Source of the DNA: a virus
Taxonomy: Duplodnaviria; Heunggongvirae; Uroviricota; Caudoviricetes
Length of the DNA: 18,324 nt
Virus record (IMG/VR): IMGVR_UViG_2606217174_000014
Strand: one strand, 5' to 3'
Shown piece after piece: positions 3,672-16,906 of this stretch. A program made the position numbers and the translations under genes. The notes beneath the pieces were generated by a model that did not search any database, was not told the DNA's origin, and was given only the letters and a program-made list of their open reading frames with translations. Numbering within the stretch: the stretch's first letter is position 1; every line of letters begins with the position of its first letter.

Positions 3672-5198
3672 TCAAAAATAAACCTCACCATCAACCATAT
3701 ATTTGAGAGTACTTATCGCCTGCTGGGCGGATATTGTTTTCATTAAAGGATAGTGTTTAAAAACAATGCCATTCATAAAATAGATATCACAGGTTTTATT
3801 ATCTGTATTGATTATGATTTTTTCGAATGTTTTATAGGCAAGTGTACGACATAGCTCTCGCCCATTTTTACTGGTTAAGTCAATAGCATGAAAATCACCA
3901 AGTGAACTCACCGCTTTACTCTTCAAAGTTTTTAATGATACAGAAGCCCTTCGTAATTCCTTATCTAATACTCTGATTTTTTCTGCTATAGCGGTAACTT
4001 CAGGCGCAACAGATAATGCAGCAATTAAATTATTAATTTTCATCTGGAGCTCAATAATTTTCAACTCTAAAGTTTCATTAGCATCTTTCTTGTTTTCAAC
4101 TGGTTGGATTTTACTACAATTAAAAAGCAACTCATTAATGATATTATAATCAACCAAATCTCTCTTTATTGATGGCCTGTCACATCGATGCAGTCTTCTC
4201 ATCGGACAAACATAATAGCCATGCAAACTTCTAGATACCGCATGAACAATCATGGTATTACCACAAGCCTCGCACTTCATAACTGTTCGAAGTAGATTTA
4301 TCAACATAGGATTTTTGCTACTATTGCTAATACCAAAAGGTGCCAACCGAATTTCCTGTACAGCGTAAAACAAATCATCTGATATGACTCTGGGATAATA
4401 GCCAGCGATTTCACTTATTCCTTTACCTCTTGCACGATATGAAGGTACGCATATACCTATCAGAGCTTTATTCGCTAATAATTTTTCAATTACAGAAGGT
4501 CCCCATGCACTTTCTTTTCCTGAGAAATTCTTTACAGCATGATCATTTAAATACTTGGCTATTGCATTCAATGAGCGCCTTTCCATCCTGAGTTTAAAAA
4601 TTAGCTCAATAGTTTTCACCCTGTCGGGGTCTGGAACAAAAGCCGTTCTTTTGTCATCTAAGGAGAGCCATCTCGGACAAGACGCCGTCATAATCGTACC
4701 TGATTCCAGTGCATCCTGCCGTTTTTTCTTCCATGATAATTTAACCCGACTTGACTTTATCTCGCTTTCTTCATTTGCCCTTTGTGCTATAAGTATGGCT
4801 TTTATTAATGAATATGGCTCATTCAAAGAGTCAATATTATAGACTGTATTGTCGCAAAGAGTTATAACATCAATACCGTGATTCAAAATCAATTTCAGAC
4901 GTTCAATCGCTTCACCGACTTTTTCTCTTGAAAGTCTGTCCAGACTTTCAACTAACAATGTAGTTCCTGGCAATATATAACCATGCTCTATAGCATCTAA
5001 AAATTCCGAAAAAGCTCCTGATTGTGCATGCTTTCCTTTGAATGCACTTAATCCTAAATCTTCATATGTTATGGTATCAAGATAATAATCACTATTTACC
5101 TTTAACCATTCAGCAATAAGTCTTCTCTGTCGGTTTAATGAGTCGCCAGACATCTGACCTGGTGATGAAAATCGCATATATGCTATGGCTTTTTTCAT
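3672..5198 (-). CDS. ybcK: Large serine recombinase (DLP12 YbcK-like)
   Basis: 508 aa. N-terminal resolvase catalytic motif (AYMRFSSPGQ with the serine nucleophile, then SLNRQ), followed by a recombinase domain, Cys clusters (CEACGN...C...C) and a C-terminal coiled-coil region. AGGTG Shine-Dalgarno. Confidence 0.85.
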   Translation of the reverse strand: MKKAIAYMRFSSPGQMSGDSLNRQRRLIAEWLKVNSDYYLDTITYEDLGLSAFKGKHAQSGAFSEFLDAIEHGYILPGTTLLVESLDRLSREKVGEAIERLKLILNHGIDVITLCDNTVYNIDSLNEPYSLIKAILIAQRANEESEIKSSRVKLSWKKKRQDALESGTIMTASCPRWLSLDDKRTAFVPDPDRVKTIELIFKLRMERRSLNAIAKYLNDHAVKNFSGKESAWGPSVIEKLLANKALIGICVPSYRARGKGISEIAGYYPRVISDDLFYAVQEIRLAPFGISNSSKNPMLINLLRTVMKCEACGNTMIVHAVSRSLHGYYVCPMRRLHRCDRPSIKRDLVDYNIINELLFNCSKIQPVENKKDANETLELKIIELQMKINNLIAALSVAPEVTAIAEKIRVLDKELRRASVSLKTLKSKAVSSLGDFHAIDLTSKNGRELCRTLAYKTFEKIIINTDNKTCDIYFMNGIVFKHYPLMKTISAQQAISTLKYMVDGEVYF

Positions 5199-5453
5199 GG
5201 TGACACCTGCTAACGTATGCTTTTATAAACCTTAGTGGTGGGATATAATTTTGTTTAATTTTTATTTAAAAAGACAATTAAGGTCACATTATCTTGAATA
5301 TACAACAATAATCGTATTGCAATTTTCTTACGCCATAATCTTGAAAGCACAAAAGAATACATAAAAAAATAAAGACATTAACAAAAAGCATAAAACGAGG
5401 CTCATATAAATATAAGAGCCTCCATATTTTAGTCGTTTAGAAACAAATTATTT

Positions 5454-5786
5454 TTAATGTGGTGTGCTTCGTGACAATAAATTAATAACCAACACACCGG
5501 CACAAATCAACATCATGCCTATAATGGCTGGCAGGTCCAGCCGTTGGCCGAAAAGTCCCCATGACAGTAAGCTAATCAGGACAATACCGACTCCTGACCA
5601 GATAGCATAAGCAATCCCTGTAGGAATATAAGCCAGCGTCTGAGCTAATAACCAGAATGATGCACAATAACAAATAATTGTACCAACAGATGGCCATAAC
5701 CGTGTAAAACCTTCTGAAAACTTCATTAAGGTTGTACCAATGACCTCTGCAAGTATTGCACCACCAAGATAAATATAAGGGTTCAT
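5454..5786 (-). CDS. emrE: SMR-family multidrug efflux transporter EmrE
   Basis: ORF 5454..5840; the internal start MNPYIYLGGAILAEVIGTTLMKFSEGFTRLWPSVG... gives a 110-aa four-helix SMR protein matching EmrE. Confidence 0.9.
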   Translation of the reverse strand: MNPYIYLGGAILAEVIGTTLMKFSEGFTRLWPSVGTIICYCASFWLLAQTLAYIPTGIAYAIWSGVGIVLISLLSWGLFGQRLDLPAIIGMMLICAGVLVINLLSRSTPH

Positions 5787-5853
5787 AGAATATTCTTTCC
5801 TGTTCAAACTGGAGAGAATTGTACTACAGTTTGAACTCAACTCACCTGTTTCA

Positions 5854-6156
5854 TCATTGTGTACCCATTGATGTTCTTTTATATACCCTCAATACCCGTT
5901 TCATCGCGGCACTCTGGCGACACTCCTTAAAAATCAGATTCGTGCTCACCTTTCCTTCCCGTTCTTCTCTGGTAGCAAACCGGTAATACACCGTTCGCCA
6001 GACCTTACCTTCGATAGCCAGAAGACCTGCCCGTGCCATTTTAGCCGCAGCCTGATTTATGCTGGTTACCGTTGCGCCTGTTACCGCGGCAACGTCCTGC
6101 GCACAGAATTTCTTATGAGTCCCCAGGTAATGAATAATTGCCTCTTTGCCCGTCAT
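5854..6156 (-). CDS. ren: Ren-like protein
   Basis: MTGKEAIIHYLGTH...ATVTSINQAAAKMARAG...VWRTVYYRFATREEREGK... matches lambda Ren as recalled; the C-terminus diverges. The start overlaps the end of P (ATGA). Confidence 0.8.
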   Translation of the reverse strand: MTGKEAIIHYLGTHKKFCAQDVAAVTGATVTSINQAAAKMARAGLLAIEGKVWRTVYYRFATREEREGKVSTNLIFKECRQSAAMKRVLRVYKRTSMGTQ

Positions 6157-6853
6157 ACCCTTGCTCCTTTCAGCCCAAACTTAGCTTTGATTTCTGCGAT
6201 CTTCGCCAGAGCCTGTGCACGATTTAGAGGTCTACCGCCCATGACAGGAAGTTGTTTTACTGGTTCAGGTATAGCCTCACCACGGTTAATTCGTGCGGTC
6301 ATACAGGACAGTTCATCGGCAGCCTTGCGCCGTAATTCCGCGTCAGTCACGCATTGGCCCGCATGTTCTGATACAGGTTGGTAACCAGCCAGTAGTGCGC
6401 GTTTGATTTCCACGGATAAGACTCTGCATCCGGATACAGCCCGCGCTTCCGGCAATACTCGTAAACCATATCAACCAGCTCGCTGGCGTTTGGCAGCCCG
6501 GCGGTAACGGATGCTTCTTCCCGGCACCAGGCGACAAACTGCCCGGGTGATGGCAGGAATGGTCGATTCTGCCGACGGGCTACGCGCATTCCAGCGTTAA
6601 CCTGTTCCATTGTGGTGATCCCGTTTTCCCGAAAAGCCAGCACCCACTGGCGGCGGATTTCGTTCAGTTCATTCTGGTCACGGTTAGCCAGGCTCGCCGG
6701 GAAAGTTGCCAGTAACTGGCTGAACACACCGTTGATGATCTGCGCTACCTGCTGTACCTGCGGCTTTTCGTCGTACTGTTCCGGCATGTTGTTGGCGATC
6801 CGACGCATCTGCTCACGGTCAAAGTTAACCATCTGTGCGGCGATGTTTTTCAT
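6153..6853 (-). pseudogene. P: Replication protein P (DnaB loader), disrupted by a 1-nt frameshift near 6347
   Basis: The 168-aa ORF 6347..6853 (MKNIAAQMVNFDREQMRRIANN...NMRANA*) and the 100-aa ORF 6153..6455 (...VTDAELRRKAADEL...KIAEIKAKFGLKGARV) together form one lambda-P-like protein but sit in different frames. Confidence 0.8.
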
Positions 6854-7779
6854 AAATCCACCCCGTAAATCCAGTCAGTGTTTGTCAGGTCGAGTTTTGG
6901 TTTGCTGGCTATCATGCCTGCCTGTTGCTTGTTACGGTTGATTTCGAGTTGGGTCCACTTGTCGCGGAGTTTGGCCGGACTTAGCACGTTACCGGACCAG
7001 AAGTTGTCCTGGCATGCCCAGCGGAAAAGCACGCACATGTCGCGGTGGTTACGTCCGTCACGTTCACGCATCAGGCGGATATCGTTAGCCCACCCTGCAA
7101 AATTCGGTTTTCTGGCTGATGGTGCGATGGTCTTCACCATGTCAAACATCCACTCTGCGGCGGTCAGGTCTTCTGCTGTCCCCCACTTGCTGCCGCTCTG
7201 AATTGCAGCATCTGGTTTCACCACAGGAAGATCGTTTTCTGGTTGGTCAGAGGATTCGCCAGAATTCTCGGACGAAAAAGGTTTTATATTGTCTTTTGTT
7301 AGTTTGTCTTTTGTGTTTACCTGATTCGGGTAAACGCCTTTACCTGATTTGGGTAAACTTTTCTTACCTGATTCAGGTAAATTTACCTCTTTCAGGTAAA
7401 CTTTATTTTTCTTACCTGATTCGGGTAATGTTGACCATTCACTGACCACATTATTAATACCGATATTCCGCCCGCTCTGAATCAAAATCCCACGCTTTAC
7501 CAGAACACTTTTTGCAGCAGAACACTTGTGCGGTAATATCCCGGTCAATCCGGACAGTTGCTCGTTGCTCACCCAATCCAGTTTTTTATTAAAGCCATAT
7601 GTTTTGCGCATGACAGCCAGGAAGACCAGAAGCTGGTGCTGTGTTAATCCGGCCAGCATCACAGCTTCCAGCAACTCATTTGCAATGCGCGTATAACCAT
7701 CATCGAGATCTGCCACGCGCGGCTCCTTTTGTGCCGCATCCGGCACTGGAAAATTGAATATCTCAGCAGTGTTTGCCAT
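6850..7779 (-). CDS. O: Replication initiator O
   Basis: ORF 6850..7869; the probable start is MANTAEIFNF... at 7779 (compare lambda O MTNTAKILNF). ADLDDGY and LLVFLAVMRKTYG motifs; the gene contains the iterons. Confidence 0.85.
   Translation of the reverse strand: MANTAEIFNFPVPDAAQKEPRVADLDDGYTRIANELLEAVMLAGLTQHQLLVFLAVMRKTYGFNKKLDWVSNEQLSGLTGILPHKCSAAKSVLVKRGILIQSGRNIGINNVVSEWSTLPESGKKNKVYLKEVNLPESGKKSLPKSGKGVYPNQVNTKDKLTKDNIKPFSSENSGESSDQPENDLPVVKPDAAIQSGSKWGTAEDLTAAEWMFDMVKTIAPSARKPNFAGWANDIRLMRERDGRNHRDMCVLFRWACQDNFWSGNVLSPAKLRDKWTQLEINRNKQQAGMIASKPKLDLTNTDWIYGVDL
7318..7430. repeat. Replication origin iterons (five ~18-bp direct repeats, tacctgattcgggtaaac-like) inside the O gene
   Basis: Repeats at about 7318, 7341, 7366, 7384 and 7413, with an AT-rich tract (7261-7310) on the O-distal side, as at ori-lambda. 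Confidence 0.8.
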
Positions 7780-7865
7780 AATTCCTCCCGCAATGAGTGT
7801 GTTACGATTTGCACCTGAAAGTCGGTTCTGTTCCAGCAGACCGGCTTTCGCCATTTCTGAACCTG

Positions 7866-8405
7866 TCATATCGCCCCCAGCATGGTAGTAACCATCGCCA
7901 TCAATGGACCAGCCAGATCTGGGTCCACACGAAACATCGATACAATACCTTCACTAATTTCCTTCAGTTTCTGGTGGCGTGGTGCGTTGAGAATGACAGC
8001 CTGTTTTGCCTCACTGAGTTCCTTTTCCATTTCAGCCAACCTGGCCATGAAGCTATCCTGCTCAACCAGGTAACCGCGATATTCCAGCGGTAGTACCGCC
8101 AGAATTGCCGGGGTCAGTTCACGCACGTTATTTCGGTATTTTTCAGAATCGAATTTGTTATCGAGGAAGCGGAACAGCTTCTGGCGTGCACGGCTGACAT
8201 CATCAGGGAAATCGATGGTGCCGCCGCCCTGCTCCCGATACTCATTCACAATGAGTGTGGCAACGACATCCTGATTATCTACAGCCGACCAGGCGCGGAC
8301 GGCATCACGGATTTTTTCGTGGCCTGGCACCTGTTTTGTTTGAGAACGATTTATCACCGCAGTCGGGCTAAATCCGCTAGTCTGTTGGTATGGAAGTGGT
8401 TGCAT
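7866..8405 (-). CDS. Early regulatory protein in the cII position (YdaT-like, 179 aa)
   Basis: Clean ORF with an AAGGAG Shine-Dalgarno immediately downstream of cro. Family assignment is from position and general resemblance only. Confidence 0.6.
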   Translation of the reverse strand: MQPLPYQQTSGFSPTAVINRSQTKQVPGHEKIRDAVRAWSAVDNQDVVATLIVNEYREQGGGTIDFPDDVSRARQKLFRFLDNKFDSEKYRNNVRELTPAILAVLPLEYRGYLVEQDSFMARLAEMEKELSEAKQAVILNAPRHQKLKEISEGIVSMFRVDPDLAGPLMAMVTTMLGAI

Positions 8406-8474
8406 AATTGACTCCTTTAGTTTGAATTGACTGTTAAGTTGATTGCTTATTGTTAAAGAGCGTGAAATGGAAAT

Positions 8475-8705
8475 TTAAGCTGCGTTCTTTTCGGTGTGTG
8501 GAAACAACTTCGGAAGATCCGGGCGAATCTGGTATGCCTTCACTACTCCACCAGTAGCCGTAACAATGCTGCCGACATGTTCAGGGGATACCTTTGCTTT
8601 GTTGTGAAGCCACTTATAGACGGCCTGCTGTGAAACTTCGCAAGCAGCGCCCAGTTTCTTTTGTGAACCAACGATATTGATCGCTGTTTTGATAGCTGGG
8701 TTCAT
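8475..8705 (-). CDS. cro: Cro-like HTH repressor (YdaS family)
   Basis: 76 aa, HTH ...AACEVSQQAVYKWLHN..., C-terminal TGG.V....IRPDL pattern, GGAGG Shine-Dalgarno, divergent from cI. Confidence 0.8.
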   Translation of the reverse strand: MNPAIKTAINIVGSQKKLGAACEVSQQAVYKWLHNKAKVSPEHVGSIVTATGGVVKAYQIRPDLPKLFPHTEKNAA

Positions 8706-8809
8706 AACAACCTCCGTGGTTAATTTGAATCAAGATTAAAACTATGGTTGTTTTTAGTCAACAACCATTTTCGTTTGATGGAATAAAACCTTGGTTGTAC
8801 ATTTGGACT
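8706..8809. promoter_or_regulatory. oR/pR/pRM divergent immunity control region
   Basis: Palindrome ATGGTTGTT-n7-AACAACCAT (8744-8768) plus further GGTTG/CAACC motifs. Minus-strand pR: -35 TTGACT (8761..8756) and -10 TAATCT (8738..8733). Plus-strand pRM-like promoter: -35 TTGATG (8775-8780), 17-bp spacer, -10 TACATT (8798-8803), placing the transcript start at the A of the cI ATG. Confidence 0.6.
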
Positions 8810-9499
8810 ATGAAAACAACACTCTCAGAAAGACTTAAAGAAGCCAGATTAGCGCGAGGCCTTACACAAAAGGCGCTTGGGGATTTGGTCGGGGTTAGCC
8901 AGGCTGCTATTCAGAAAATCGAAACAGGGAAAGCTAATCAAACAACTAAAATCGTGGAGATCGCGAACGCTTTGGGTGTGCGCGCAGAATGGTTATCTTC
9001 TGGCGTTGGAAATATGTCAGACAGTACAGTGCAACCAATACAATCAACTGTCAGCCATTCCAAATACTTCAAGATTGACGTTCTTGATATAGAAGTCAGT
9101 GCTGGGCCGGGAGTCATCAACCGTGAGTTTGTAGAAGTTCTACGCTCGGTTGAGTACTCGTTTGACGATGCTCGTCACATGTTCGATGGTAGGAAGGCGG
9201 AAAATATCCGCATCATTAACGTGCGTGGTGACAGCATGTCAGGAACGATCGAACCAGGTGATCTGCTGTTCGTTGATATCACAGTTAAATCTTTCGACGG
9301 TGATGGTATCTATGCGTTTCTGTACGACGACACAGCCCATGTAAAGCGCCTGCAAATGATGAAGGATAAGCTGCTGGTCATCTCTGATAACAAAAGCTAC
9401 TCACCGTGGGACCCGATCGAGAAAGACGAGATGAACCGGGTGTTCATCTTCGGTAAGGTTATTGGGAGCATGCCGCAGACATATAGGAAGCATGGGTAG
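8810..9499 (+). CDS. cI: CI-type prophage repressor (HTH plus LexA/S24-like autocleavage domain)
   Basis: MKTTLSERLKEARLARGLTQKALGDLVGVSQAAIQKIETGK... followed by a C-terminal region with GDSM (catalytic Ser) and a downstream Lys. ORF-track start 8744 rejected because it would overlap the operators. Confidence 0.85.
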   Translation: MKTTLSERLKEARLARGLTQKALGDLVGVSQAAIQKIETGKANQTTKIVEIANALGVRAEWLSSGVGNMSDSTVQPIQSTVSHSKYFKIDVLDIEVSAGPGVINREFVEVLRSVEYSFDDARHMFDGRKAENIRIINVRGDSMSGTIEPGDLLFVDITVKSFDGDGIYAFLYDDTAHVKRLQMMKDKLLVISDNKSYSPWDPIEKDEMNRVFIFGKVIGSMPQTYRKHG

Positions 9500-9647: not shown

Positions 9648-9740
9648 GCCCTCCCCTCATCACACACACCGTTAAAAAAACCACCATAACCTCGCTTCAG
9701 TTATCGCTATGTGATTCAAGTCACAAAATAAATCCATCCT

Positions 9741-9817
9741 AAATACAACCAGTTATATCTAAAACAACCAATAAAACAACTTTTGTTGTTGACGATAAAA
9801 CAACTATAGTTTTAAAT
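9741..9817 (+). promoter_or_regulatory. oL/pL region
   Basis: Repeated AACAAC half-sites including the perfect palindrome AACAAC-tttt-GTTGTT (9775-9790), which overlaps the -35 TTGACG (9789-9794); 17-bp spacer; -10 TTAAAT (9812-9817). The 19-bp core aaaacaac[t/c]atagttttaa is shared with pR. Confidence 0.6.
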
Positions 9818-15639: not shown

Positions 15640-15858
15640 ATGTACTTGACACTTCAGGAGTGGAACGCTCGCCAGCGACGCCCAAGAAGCCTTGAAACAG
15701 TTCGTCGATGGGTGCGCGAATGCAGGATATTCCCTCCTCCGGTTAAGGATGGAAGAGAATATCTGTTCCACGAATCAGCGGTAAAGGTTGACTTAAATCG
15801 ACCAGTAACAGGTAGCCTTTTGAAGAGGATCAGAAATGGGAAGAAGGCGAAGTCATGA
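15640..15858 (+). CDS. xis: Excisionase Xis
   Basis: 72-aa translation MYLTLQEWNARQRRPRSLETVRRWVRECRIFPPPVKDGREYLFHESAVKVDLNRPVTGSLLKRIRNGKKAKS matches lambda Xis. Confidence 0.95.
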   Translation: MYLTLQEWNARQRRPRSLETVRRWVRECRIFPPPVKDGREYLFHESAVKVDLNRPVTGSLLKRIRNGKKAKS

Positions 15859-16906
15859 GCGCCGGGATTTACCCCCTAACCTTTATATAAGAAACAATGG
15901 ATATTACTGCTACAGGGACCCAAGGACGGGTAAAGAGTTTGGATTAGGCCGAGACAGGCGAATCGCAATCACTGAAGCTATACAGGCCAACATTGAGTTA
16001 TTTTCAGGACACAAACACAAGCCTCTGACAGCGAGAATCAACAGTGATAATTCCGTTACGTTACATTCATGGCTTGATCGCTACGAAAAAATCCTGGCCA
16101 GCAGAGGAATCAAGCAGAAGACACTCATAAATTACATGAGCAAAATTAAAGCAATAAGGAGGGGTCTGCCTGATGCTCCACTTGAAGACATCACCACAAA
16201 AGAAATTGCGGCAATGCTCAATGGATACATAGACGAGGGCAAGGCGGCGTCAGCCAAGTTAATCAGATCAACACTGAGCGATGCATTCCGAGAGGCAATA
16301 GCTGAAGGCCATATAACAACAAACCCTGTCGCTGCCACTCGCGCAGCAAAATCAGAGGTAAGGAGATCAAGACTTACGGCTGACGAATACCTGAAAATTT
16401 ATCAAGCAGCAGAATCATCACCATGTTGGCTCAGACTTGCAATGGAACTGGCTGTTGTTACCGGGCAACGAGTTGGTGATTTATGCGAAATGAAGTGGTC
16501 TGATATCGTAGATGGATATCTTTATGTCGAGCAAAGCAAAACAGGCGTAAAAATTGCCATCCCAACAGTATTGCATGTTGATGCTCTCGGAATATCAATG
16601 AAGGAAACACTTGATAAATGCAAAGAGATTCTTGGCGGAGAAACCATAATTGCATCTACTCGTCGCGAACCGCTTTCATCCGGCACAGTATCAAGGTATT
16701 TTATGCGCGCACGAAAAGCATCAGGTCTTTCCTTCGAAGGGGATCCGCCTACCTTTCACGAGTTGCGCAGTTTGTCTGCAAGACTCTATGAGAAGCAGAT
16801 AAGCGATAAGTTTGCTCAACATCTTCTCGGGCATAAGTCGGACACCATGGCATCACAGTATCGTGATGACAGAGGCAGGGAGTGGGACAAAATTGAAATC
16901 AAATAA
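15836..16906 (+). CDS. int: Tyrosine integrase Int (lambda type)
   Basis: 356-aa translation MGRRRSHERRDLPPNLYIRNNGYYCYRDPRTGKEFGLGRDRR... matches lambda Int; overlaps the end of xis. Confidence 0.95.
   Translation: MGRRRSHERRDLPPNLYIRNNGYYCYRDPRTGKEFGLGRDRRIAITEAIQANIELFSGHKHKPLTARINSDNSVTLHSWLDRYEKILASRGIKQKTLINYMSKIKAIRRGLPDAPLEDITTKEIAAMLNGYIDEGKAASAKLIRSTLSDAFREAIAEGHITTNPVAATRAAKSEVRRSRLTADEYLKIYQAAESSPCWLRLAMELAVVTGQRVGDLCEMKWSDIVDGYLYVEQSKTGVKIAIPTVLHVDALGISMKETLDKCKEILGGETIIASTRREPLSSGTVSRYFMRARKASGLSFEGDPPTFHELRSLSARLYEKQISDKFAQHLLGHKSDTMASQYRDDRGREWDKIEIK

Follow-up and report, generated by a model that had tools for sequence, protein, structure and literature searches.

The prophage and its replication module

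The window, by which we mean the whole stretch of 18,324 nucleotides analysed here, forms part of a prophage inserted next to ybhC, in the lambda attachment site, with int at positions 15836–16906. Over ~18 kb it was 99.9% identical to the att-lambda prophages of the E. coli strains VTB97420v and PSS-13, and 98.5% identical to phage Turner (PP925837.1) over the 8 kb compared. All three had the same module as the window, with a YdaT/CII-like gene, O, P, ren, emrE, ybcK and, further on, Q. Unlike the window, they carried an uninterrupted P gene of 702 nt and no IS1 next to Q.

From the replication genes, O (6850–7869, minus strand; PF04492, with a lambda-like C-terminus) was intact, without a single difference from the relatives, and its stop codon overlapped the start of P (ATGA). 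A repeat search recognized inside O an intact replication origin (7284–7428), made of five palindromic iterons TTACC-N7-GGTAA (7312–7428) and an A+T-rich stretch (7284–7313), all identical to the relatives. In these relatives O was annotated from the ATG at 7869 (339 aa), which overlaps the stop of the ydaT-like gene. An internal ATG at 7779–7777 was preceded by a far stronger ribosome-binding site (GGGAGGAA, −10.3 kcal/mol) and we take it to line up with the start of lambda O; the true O may thus have ~309 aa.

P is the helicase loader, which puts the host DnaB at the viral origin. In the window its gene lay 3′ of the iteron-bearing O initiator, as in other members of the family, and both the sequence and the list of open reading frames showed a lambda-type P split by a frameshift (6153–6853, minus strand). 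The 5′ part (6347–6853, minus strand) had 168 codons, gave a product running from MKNIAAQMVNF to LYQNMRANA, and ended at a premature TGA (6349–6347). The 3′ part (6153–6347, minus strand) encoded, in the −1 frame, the 64 residues T170–V233 (from TDAELRRK to FGLKGARV), followed by the stop codon at 6153–6155. Next came a ren-like gene (5854–6156, minus strand; “Ren-like” or “protein ren” in the relatives), whose ATG overlapped the normal P stop (ATGA). Lambda P (NP_040632; PDB 8V9T, 8V9S, 6BBM) belongs to the same Pfam family, PF06992, and has the same position with respect to O and ren and the same ATGA junctions.

At 7866–8705, a YdaS-like (76 aa) and a YdaT-like protein (179 aa) held the cro and cII positions. 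Their Pfam names are those of “toxins”, and the YdaT-like protein was called CII-like by the annotators of phage Turner. Operator-like palindromes on AAAACAAC…GTTGTTTT were found at two places, at 8736–8779 in the interval from the cro-like to the cI-like gene and, ~1 kb away, at 9739–9815 downstream of the latter gene; we presume them to be oR and oL. The ~590-nt gap from cI (ending at 9499) to kil (at ~10090) had no N-like gene call.

The prophage carried the emrE–ybcK cargo known from DLP12, a cryptic prophage of K-12. The order emrE, ylcJ region, ybcK (3672–5840) was that of DLP12, and ybcK encoded an intact serine recombinase of 508 aa. In PSS-13 the ybcK recombinase was split by IS1, and ylcJ was annotated as frameshifted in the relatives. 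Other strains with the same prophage had scattered annotated frameshifts and internal stops.

The window began with an IS1 end (1–331; PF03400, with a 100% match to IS1A in PSS-13), which adjoined the prophage 26 nt downstream of the stop of quuD, the Q antiterminator gene. At the same place, the relatives had an intergenic region leading to a porin gene and the lysis genes. None of the 5,426 complete E. coli genomes contained the junction (331/332), and IS1 next to Q is the clone’s second private lesion. IS1 may simply have inserted here, or it may mark where a deletion ends; the window and the contig of a sibling isolate both ended inside IS1.

A one-base deletion private to one clone

A base-by-base comparison with two relatives and a five-way DNA alignment (window, VTB97420v, phage Turner, lambda and the sibling assembly GCA_000700625.1) placed the lesion between window positions 6348 and 6349, where exactly one base was missing relative to both the closest relatives and lambda. 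An earlier note on this DNA had proposed that P is frameshifted by a single-nucleotide deletion at about 6347–6350, and the reading frames and the alignments, including the one with lambda P that it had called for, bore this out. The note had taken the lost base for a C; in the nearest relatives it is one T of the TT pair in the TTG codon for Leu169 (an A of AA on the plus strand). On the coding strand, these relatives and phage Turner read GCG TTG ACT GAC, versus GCG-TG ACT GAC in the window, and on the plus strand the relatives read GTCAACGC, versus GTCACGC. Within window positions 6330–6370, the one-T allele reads GCGTGACTG. For the same codons lambda has GCG CTT ACT GAT, and peaD of K-12 has GCG CTG GCT GAC.

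Apart from this base, the gene was unchanged. Residues 1–168 were those of P from phage Turner and strain VTB97420v, and the 3′ part had no substitution compared with the intact allele. The note was thus right about an intact −1 frame downstream, with a length of 64 residues and not the 70 it had given. With the base restored, the protein was identical to P of Turner and VTB97420v, and 98% identical to lambda P. Against the PF06992 model (Phage_lambda_P, gathering cut-off 26 bits), the 168-aa product scored 176.8 bits over model positions 1–131 of 162 and the restored protein 208.2 bits; the second piece gave a weak match to positions 134–162, so that a single family model spans the break. A continuous polypeptide of ~233 aa with domains I–IV is not encoded, the first frame ending after 168 aa and residues 170–233 lying in the other one.

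Intact homologues were common. A megablast search with the 701 nt of P gave hits to 152 phage records, with a span of 702 nt in all matches listed. The best was Escherichia phage Turner (99.9%), the gap being the sole difference over P. P was matched in 3,564 of the 5,426 complete E. coli genomes, all best matches being 702 nt long and 99.9% identical, and many of these genomes carried more than one copy. An 81-nt query centred on the deletion had no full-length gap-free match among the 3,199 complete E. coli genomes matched; its best full-length matches were all at 98.8%, that is, with one gap. The exact 41-nt junction was found neither in the JGI metagenomes nor in the GTDB representative genomes, and in IMG/VR only in the window itself (IMGVR_UViG_2617270962_000010). 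No P gene arranged as two open reading frames occurred among the 152 phage records and ~3,200 complete E. coli genomes. Since the homologues are all uninterrupted over 702 nt, a natural two-frame arrangement, which the earlier note had named as a possible refutation, is ruled out for these comparators.

Exact look-ups of the 168-aa protein returned 56 contigs from many samples, and the truncated form at first seemed widespread. We rejected this, as the Logan/ENA cases inspected were truncations at contig ends. Of these nine contigs, seven were checked at base level, and each broke off 4 nt beyond the anchor, directly ahead of codon 169 with its variable first base; in the remaining two the P gene ended within 2 nt of the contig end. 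Looking up the 49-aa downstream open reading frame gave the same picture. The contigs probably break before codon 169 at a graph branch between co-resident P alleles, and a “168-aa P” at a contig end mimics the frameshift in exact-match protein look-ups. Among the exact-protein matches inspected, the real deletion was present only in the NCBI sibling assemblies.

One of these siblings, GCA_000700625.1, had the same deletion on contig JNMU01000040.1. This contig differed from the window at a single position, 12212, and reached 143 nt further into the flanking IS1; GCA_000700625.1 was therefore assembled separately, from a sibling isolate. The exact 168-aa protein was also found in GenBank under KDT79316.1, KDU35976.1 and KDU44310.1, with source names including E. 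coli 3-373-03_S1_C1 and _S1_C2, that is, at least two isolates of 3-373-03_S1. Across 17,994 aligned bases, the window and the VTB97420v prophage differed by 10 substitutions and the gap in P. Compared with PSS-13, there were 4 substitutions, the gap in P, and one more gap, which was PSS-13’s own annotated frameshift. The window and its sibling shared, against the relatives, the P deletion and the substitution at 9712.

These comparisons bear on a sequencing or assembly error, in which the consensus would have dropped one T and the true genome would have an intact P, an escape route that the earlier note had left for the gene. In its favour, the deletion is unique among thousands of genomes, the rest of P has no further decay, and all three carriers trace back to a single project and a single stool sample; a systematic error common to sibling libraries from the same pipeline is conceivable. 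However, the deletion was reproduced in at least two independently assembled siblings differing at a SNP, three GenBank protein records carry its product, its context is a TT pair and no long homopolymer, and the window has no other indel of its own in 18 kb compared with the relatives. We consider an error very unlikely. From the assemblies we conclude that the base was genuinely lost by mutation and that the loss is confined to a single clone.

The positions 9712 and 12212 were the only substitutions separating the window from both close relatives. The first (T for C), common to the sibling, lies ~27 nt before the presumed oL. The second (G for T, in a G run of a DUF1317 gene) was seen in the window alone and may be an error.

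Predicted consequences for helicase loading

Lambda P has four domains: I (1–29, the N-terminal lasso), II (~30–119), III (~120–192) and IV (193–233, the C-terminal lasso) (PMC12661323). The C-terminal lasso binds DnaB and is thought to be the first element in stable DnaB binding (PMC12661323), and a P fragment of residues 103–233 is sufficient for robust DnaB binding (PMC6391071). Compared with lambda P, the window protein is cut after residue 168, and the last helix of domain III and the lasso 193–233 are detached. The product retains domain I with its N-terminal lasso, the ensemble-assembling domain II and roughly two thirds of domain III; domain IV is lost completely, together with the last part of domain III. 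The lasso helix (lambda residues ~212–226, with the DnaB contacts A215, K218, I219, I222 and F226) is encoded within 6153–6347, out of frame, and the lasso is no longer attached to the loader.

We propose that the ancestor of the E. coli clone 3-373-03_S1 lost one T from the Leu169 codon, and that translation of P would now end after residue 168. O would still bind the five intact iterons and form its complex with the origin, and DnaB would not be delivered there. Once induced, the prophage would fail to initiate replication by itself, except where a lambda-type P was available in trans; another resident lambdoid prophage may provide one. In lambda, insertions and deletions that inactivate P abolish initiation at the origin (Hayes et al., PMC3640518). 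The loss of helicase loading and the replication defect, both of which the earlier note had also expected, are predicted here from the structure and genetics of lambda P (PMC12661323, PMC6391071, PMC3640518). Overall, we give a probability of about 85% to a recent, genuine loss-of-function frameshift that deprives the prophage of replication initiation of its own, P in trans excepted. Translational coupling between P and ren would probably be lost too, presumably because ribosomes now stop 190 nt upstream.

P could still be functional if the two frames were joined by −1 ribosomal frameshifting or transcriptional slippage, or if reinitiation produced fragments that reassemble. Correction by slippage, which the earlier note had allowed for, appears unlikely: the 60 nt on each side of the site contained neither an X XXY YYZ slippery heptamer nor a homopolymer of five bases or longer. 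The two-frame arrangement was likewise not conserved, no homologue being organized as two open reading frames among the phage records and E. coli genomes compared. Reading through the TGA in frame 0 would lead to the next TGA 15 codons on. As for reinitiation, the new stop shares bases with a GTG that lies in the right frame for the 3′ part, and this GTGA resembles the O–P and P–ren ATGA couplings of the same operon. However, the 22 nt preceding the GTG pair with the 3′ end of the 16S rRNA at only −2.5 kcal/mol, versus −6.6 to −10.3 kcal/mol for genuine starts nearby. Some reinitiation at the GTG, giving a separate C-terminal peptide of 65 aa, is conceivable. A single-sequence AlphaFold model of the restored P, of low confidence (pLDDT 59.7), put the break in a short loop between two helices (151–167 and 171–190), which would suit a split protein; against this, the break falls inside the compact domain III. 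Taken together, a P that still works by any of these routes seems highly improbable.

In a related scenario the gene would not be inert despite its lesion. Pieces 1–168 and 169–233, the latter made through the GTGA, would reassemble into a working loader, or the 168-aa product would act as a dominant-negative decoy. As a decoy, it would keep the part that joins the loader ensemble, have no grip on DnaB, and so block the replication of incoming lambda-type phages. We regard this scenario as extremely improbable.

The preferred reading remains a loss of function. The gene is disrupted where its orthologues are intact, and the disruption is restricted to one lineage, as in a prophage pseudogene. 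From its sequence, the window P is a pseudogene of the lambda P helicase loader family and not a functional member of it.

Probable early decay of a phage type viable elsewhere

The VTB97420v prophage was complete for terminase, head, tail and lysis genes, and Turner is an isolated 48-kb virus with the arrangement O-P-ren-emrE-ybcK-Q and an intact P. Because the former is complete and the latter was isolated as a virus, the P lesion is an early decay step, and the phage type itself is viable elsewhere.

A decayed lambda-type P is also found in DLP12 of K-12, as peaD, next to ren, emrE, ylcJ and ybcK, with ~95% identity to the window over the shared 312 nt (by column count). PeaD is a 5′-truncated remnant of 312 nt in a heavily deleted prophage at argU, whereas the window P is full length with one frameshift, and its prophage occupies the lambda attachment site. 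We considered and rejected peaD as an instance of the same lesion, as it is 5′-truncated and retains the missing base.

The frameshift could have been selected, if the loss of P protected the host from P lethality and from replicative killing on prophage derepression, the element being “grounded” and its cargo, for example emrE, being kept. Hayes et al. (PMC3640518) found O or P lesions in cells that had survived replicative killing, and showed that P owes its toxicity to the sequestration of DnaB, which would favour such a selection. The P-null survivors (RK−) in that study were selected in engineered, non-excisable lambda fragments; the window lesion is natural and known from its sequence. 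The clone also had two private disruptive lesions, the P frameshift and IS1 next to Q, and only one private SNP shared with the sibling in ~17 kb. Two disruptive events against one shared private substitution are suggestive of selection, far too little to go further, since two events are too few to separate selection from drift. Moreover, int and xis had no private change compared with the close relatives, and the prophage is not obviously trapped. We find a selected loss rather unlikely; it is in any case a refinement of the pseudogene call and not an alternative to it.

With or without selection, it is very probable that this lambdoid prophage, in other respects almost complete, can no longer replicate autonomously in the one clone. 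Decay of this kind is ordinary for an integrated virus, the gene family and the element type are already well known, and the significance of the finding is local, with no new question opened. We recommend that annotations label P as a pseudogene and the provirus as probably defective. The clone also offers a small natural example of the first steps in prophage decay, with a frameshift in P and IS1 next to Q in a prophage that is otherwise essentially unchanged.

The prophage type carries emrE and a porin-linked late region. The strain name 3-373-03_S1 also occurs in papers on pipolin mobile elements.
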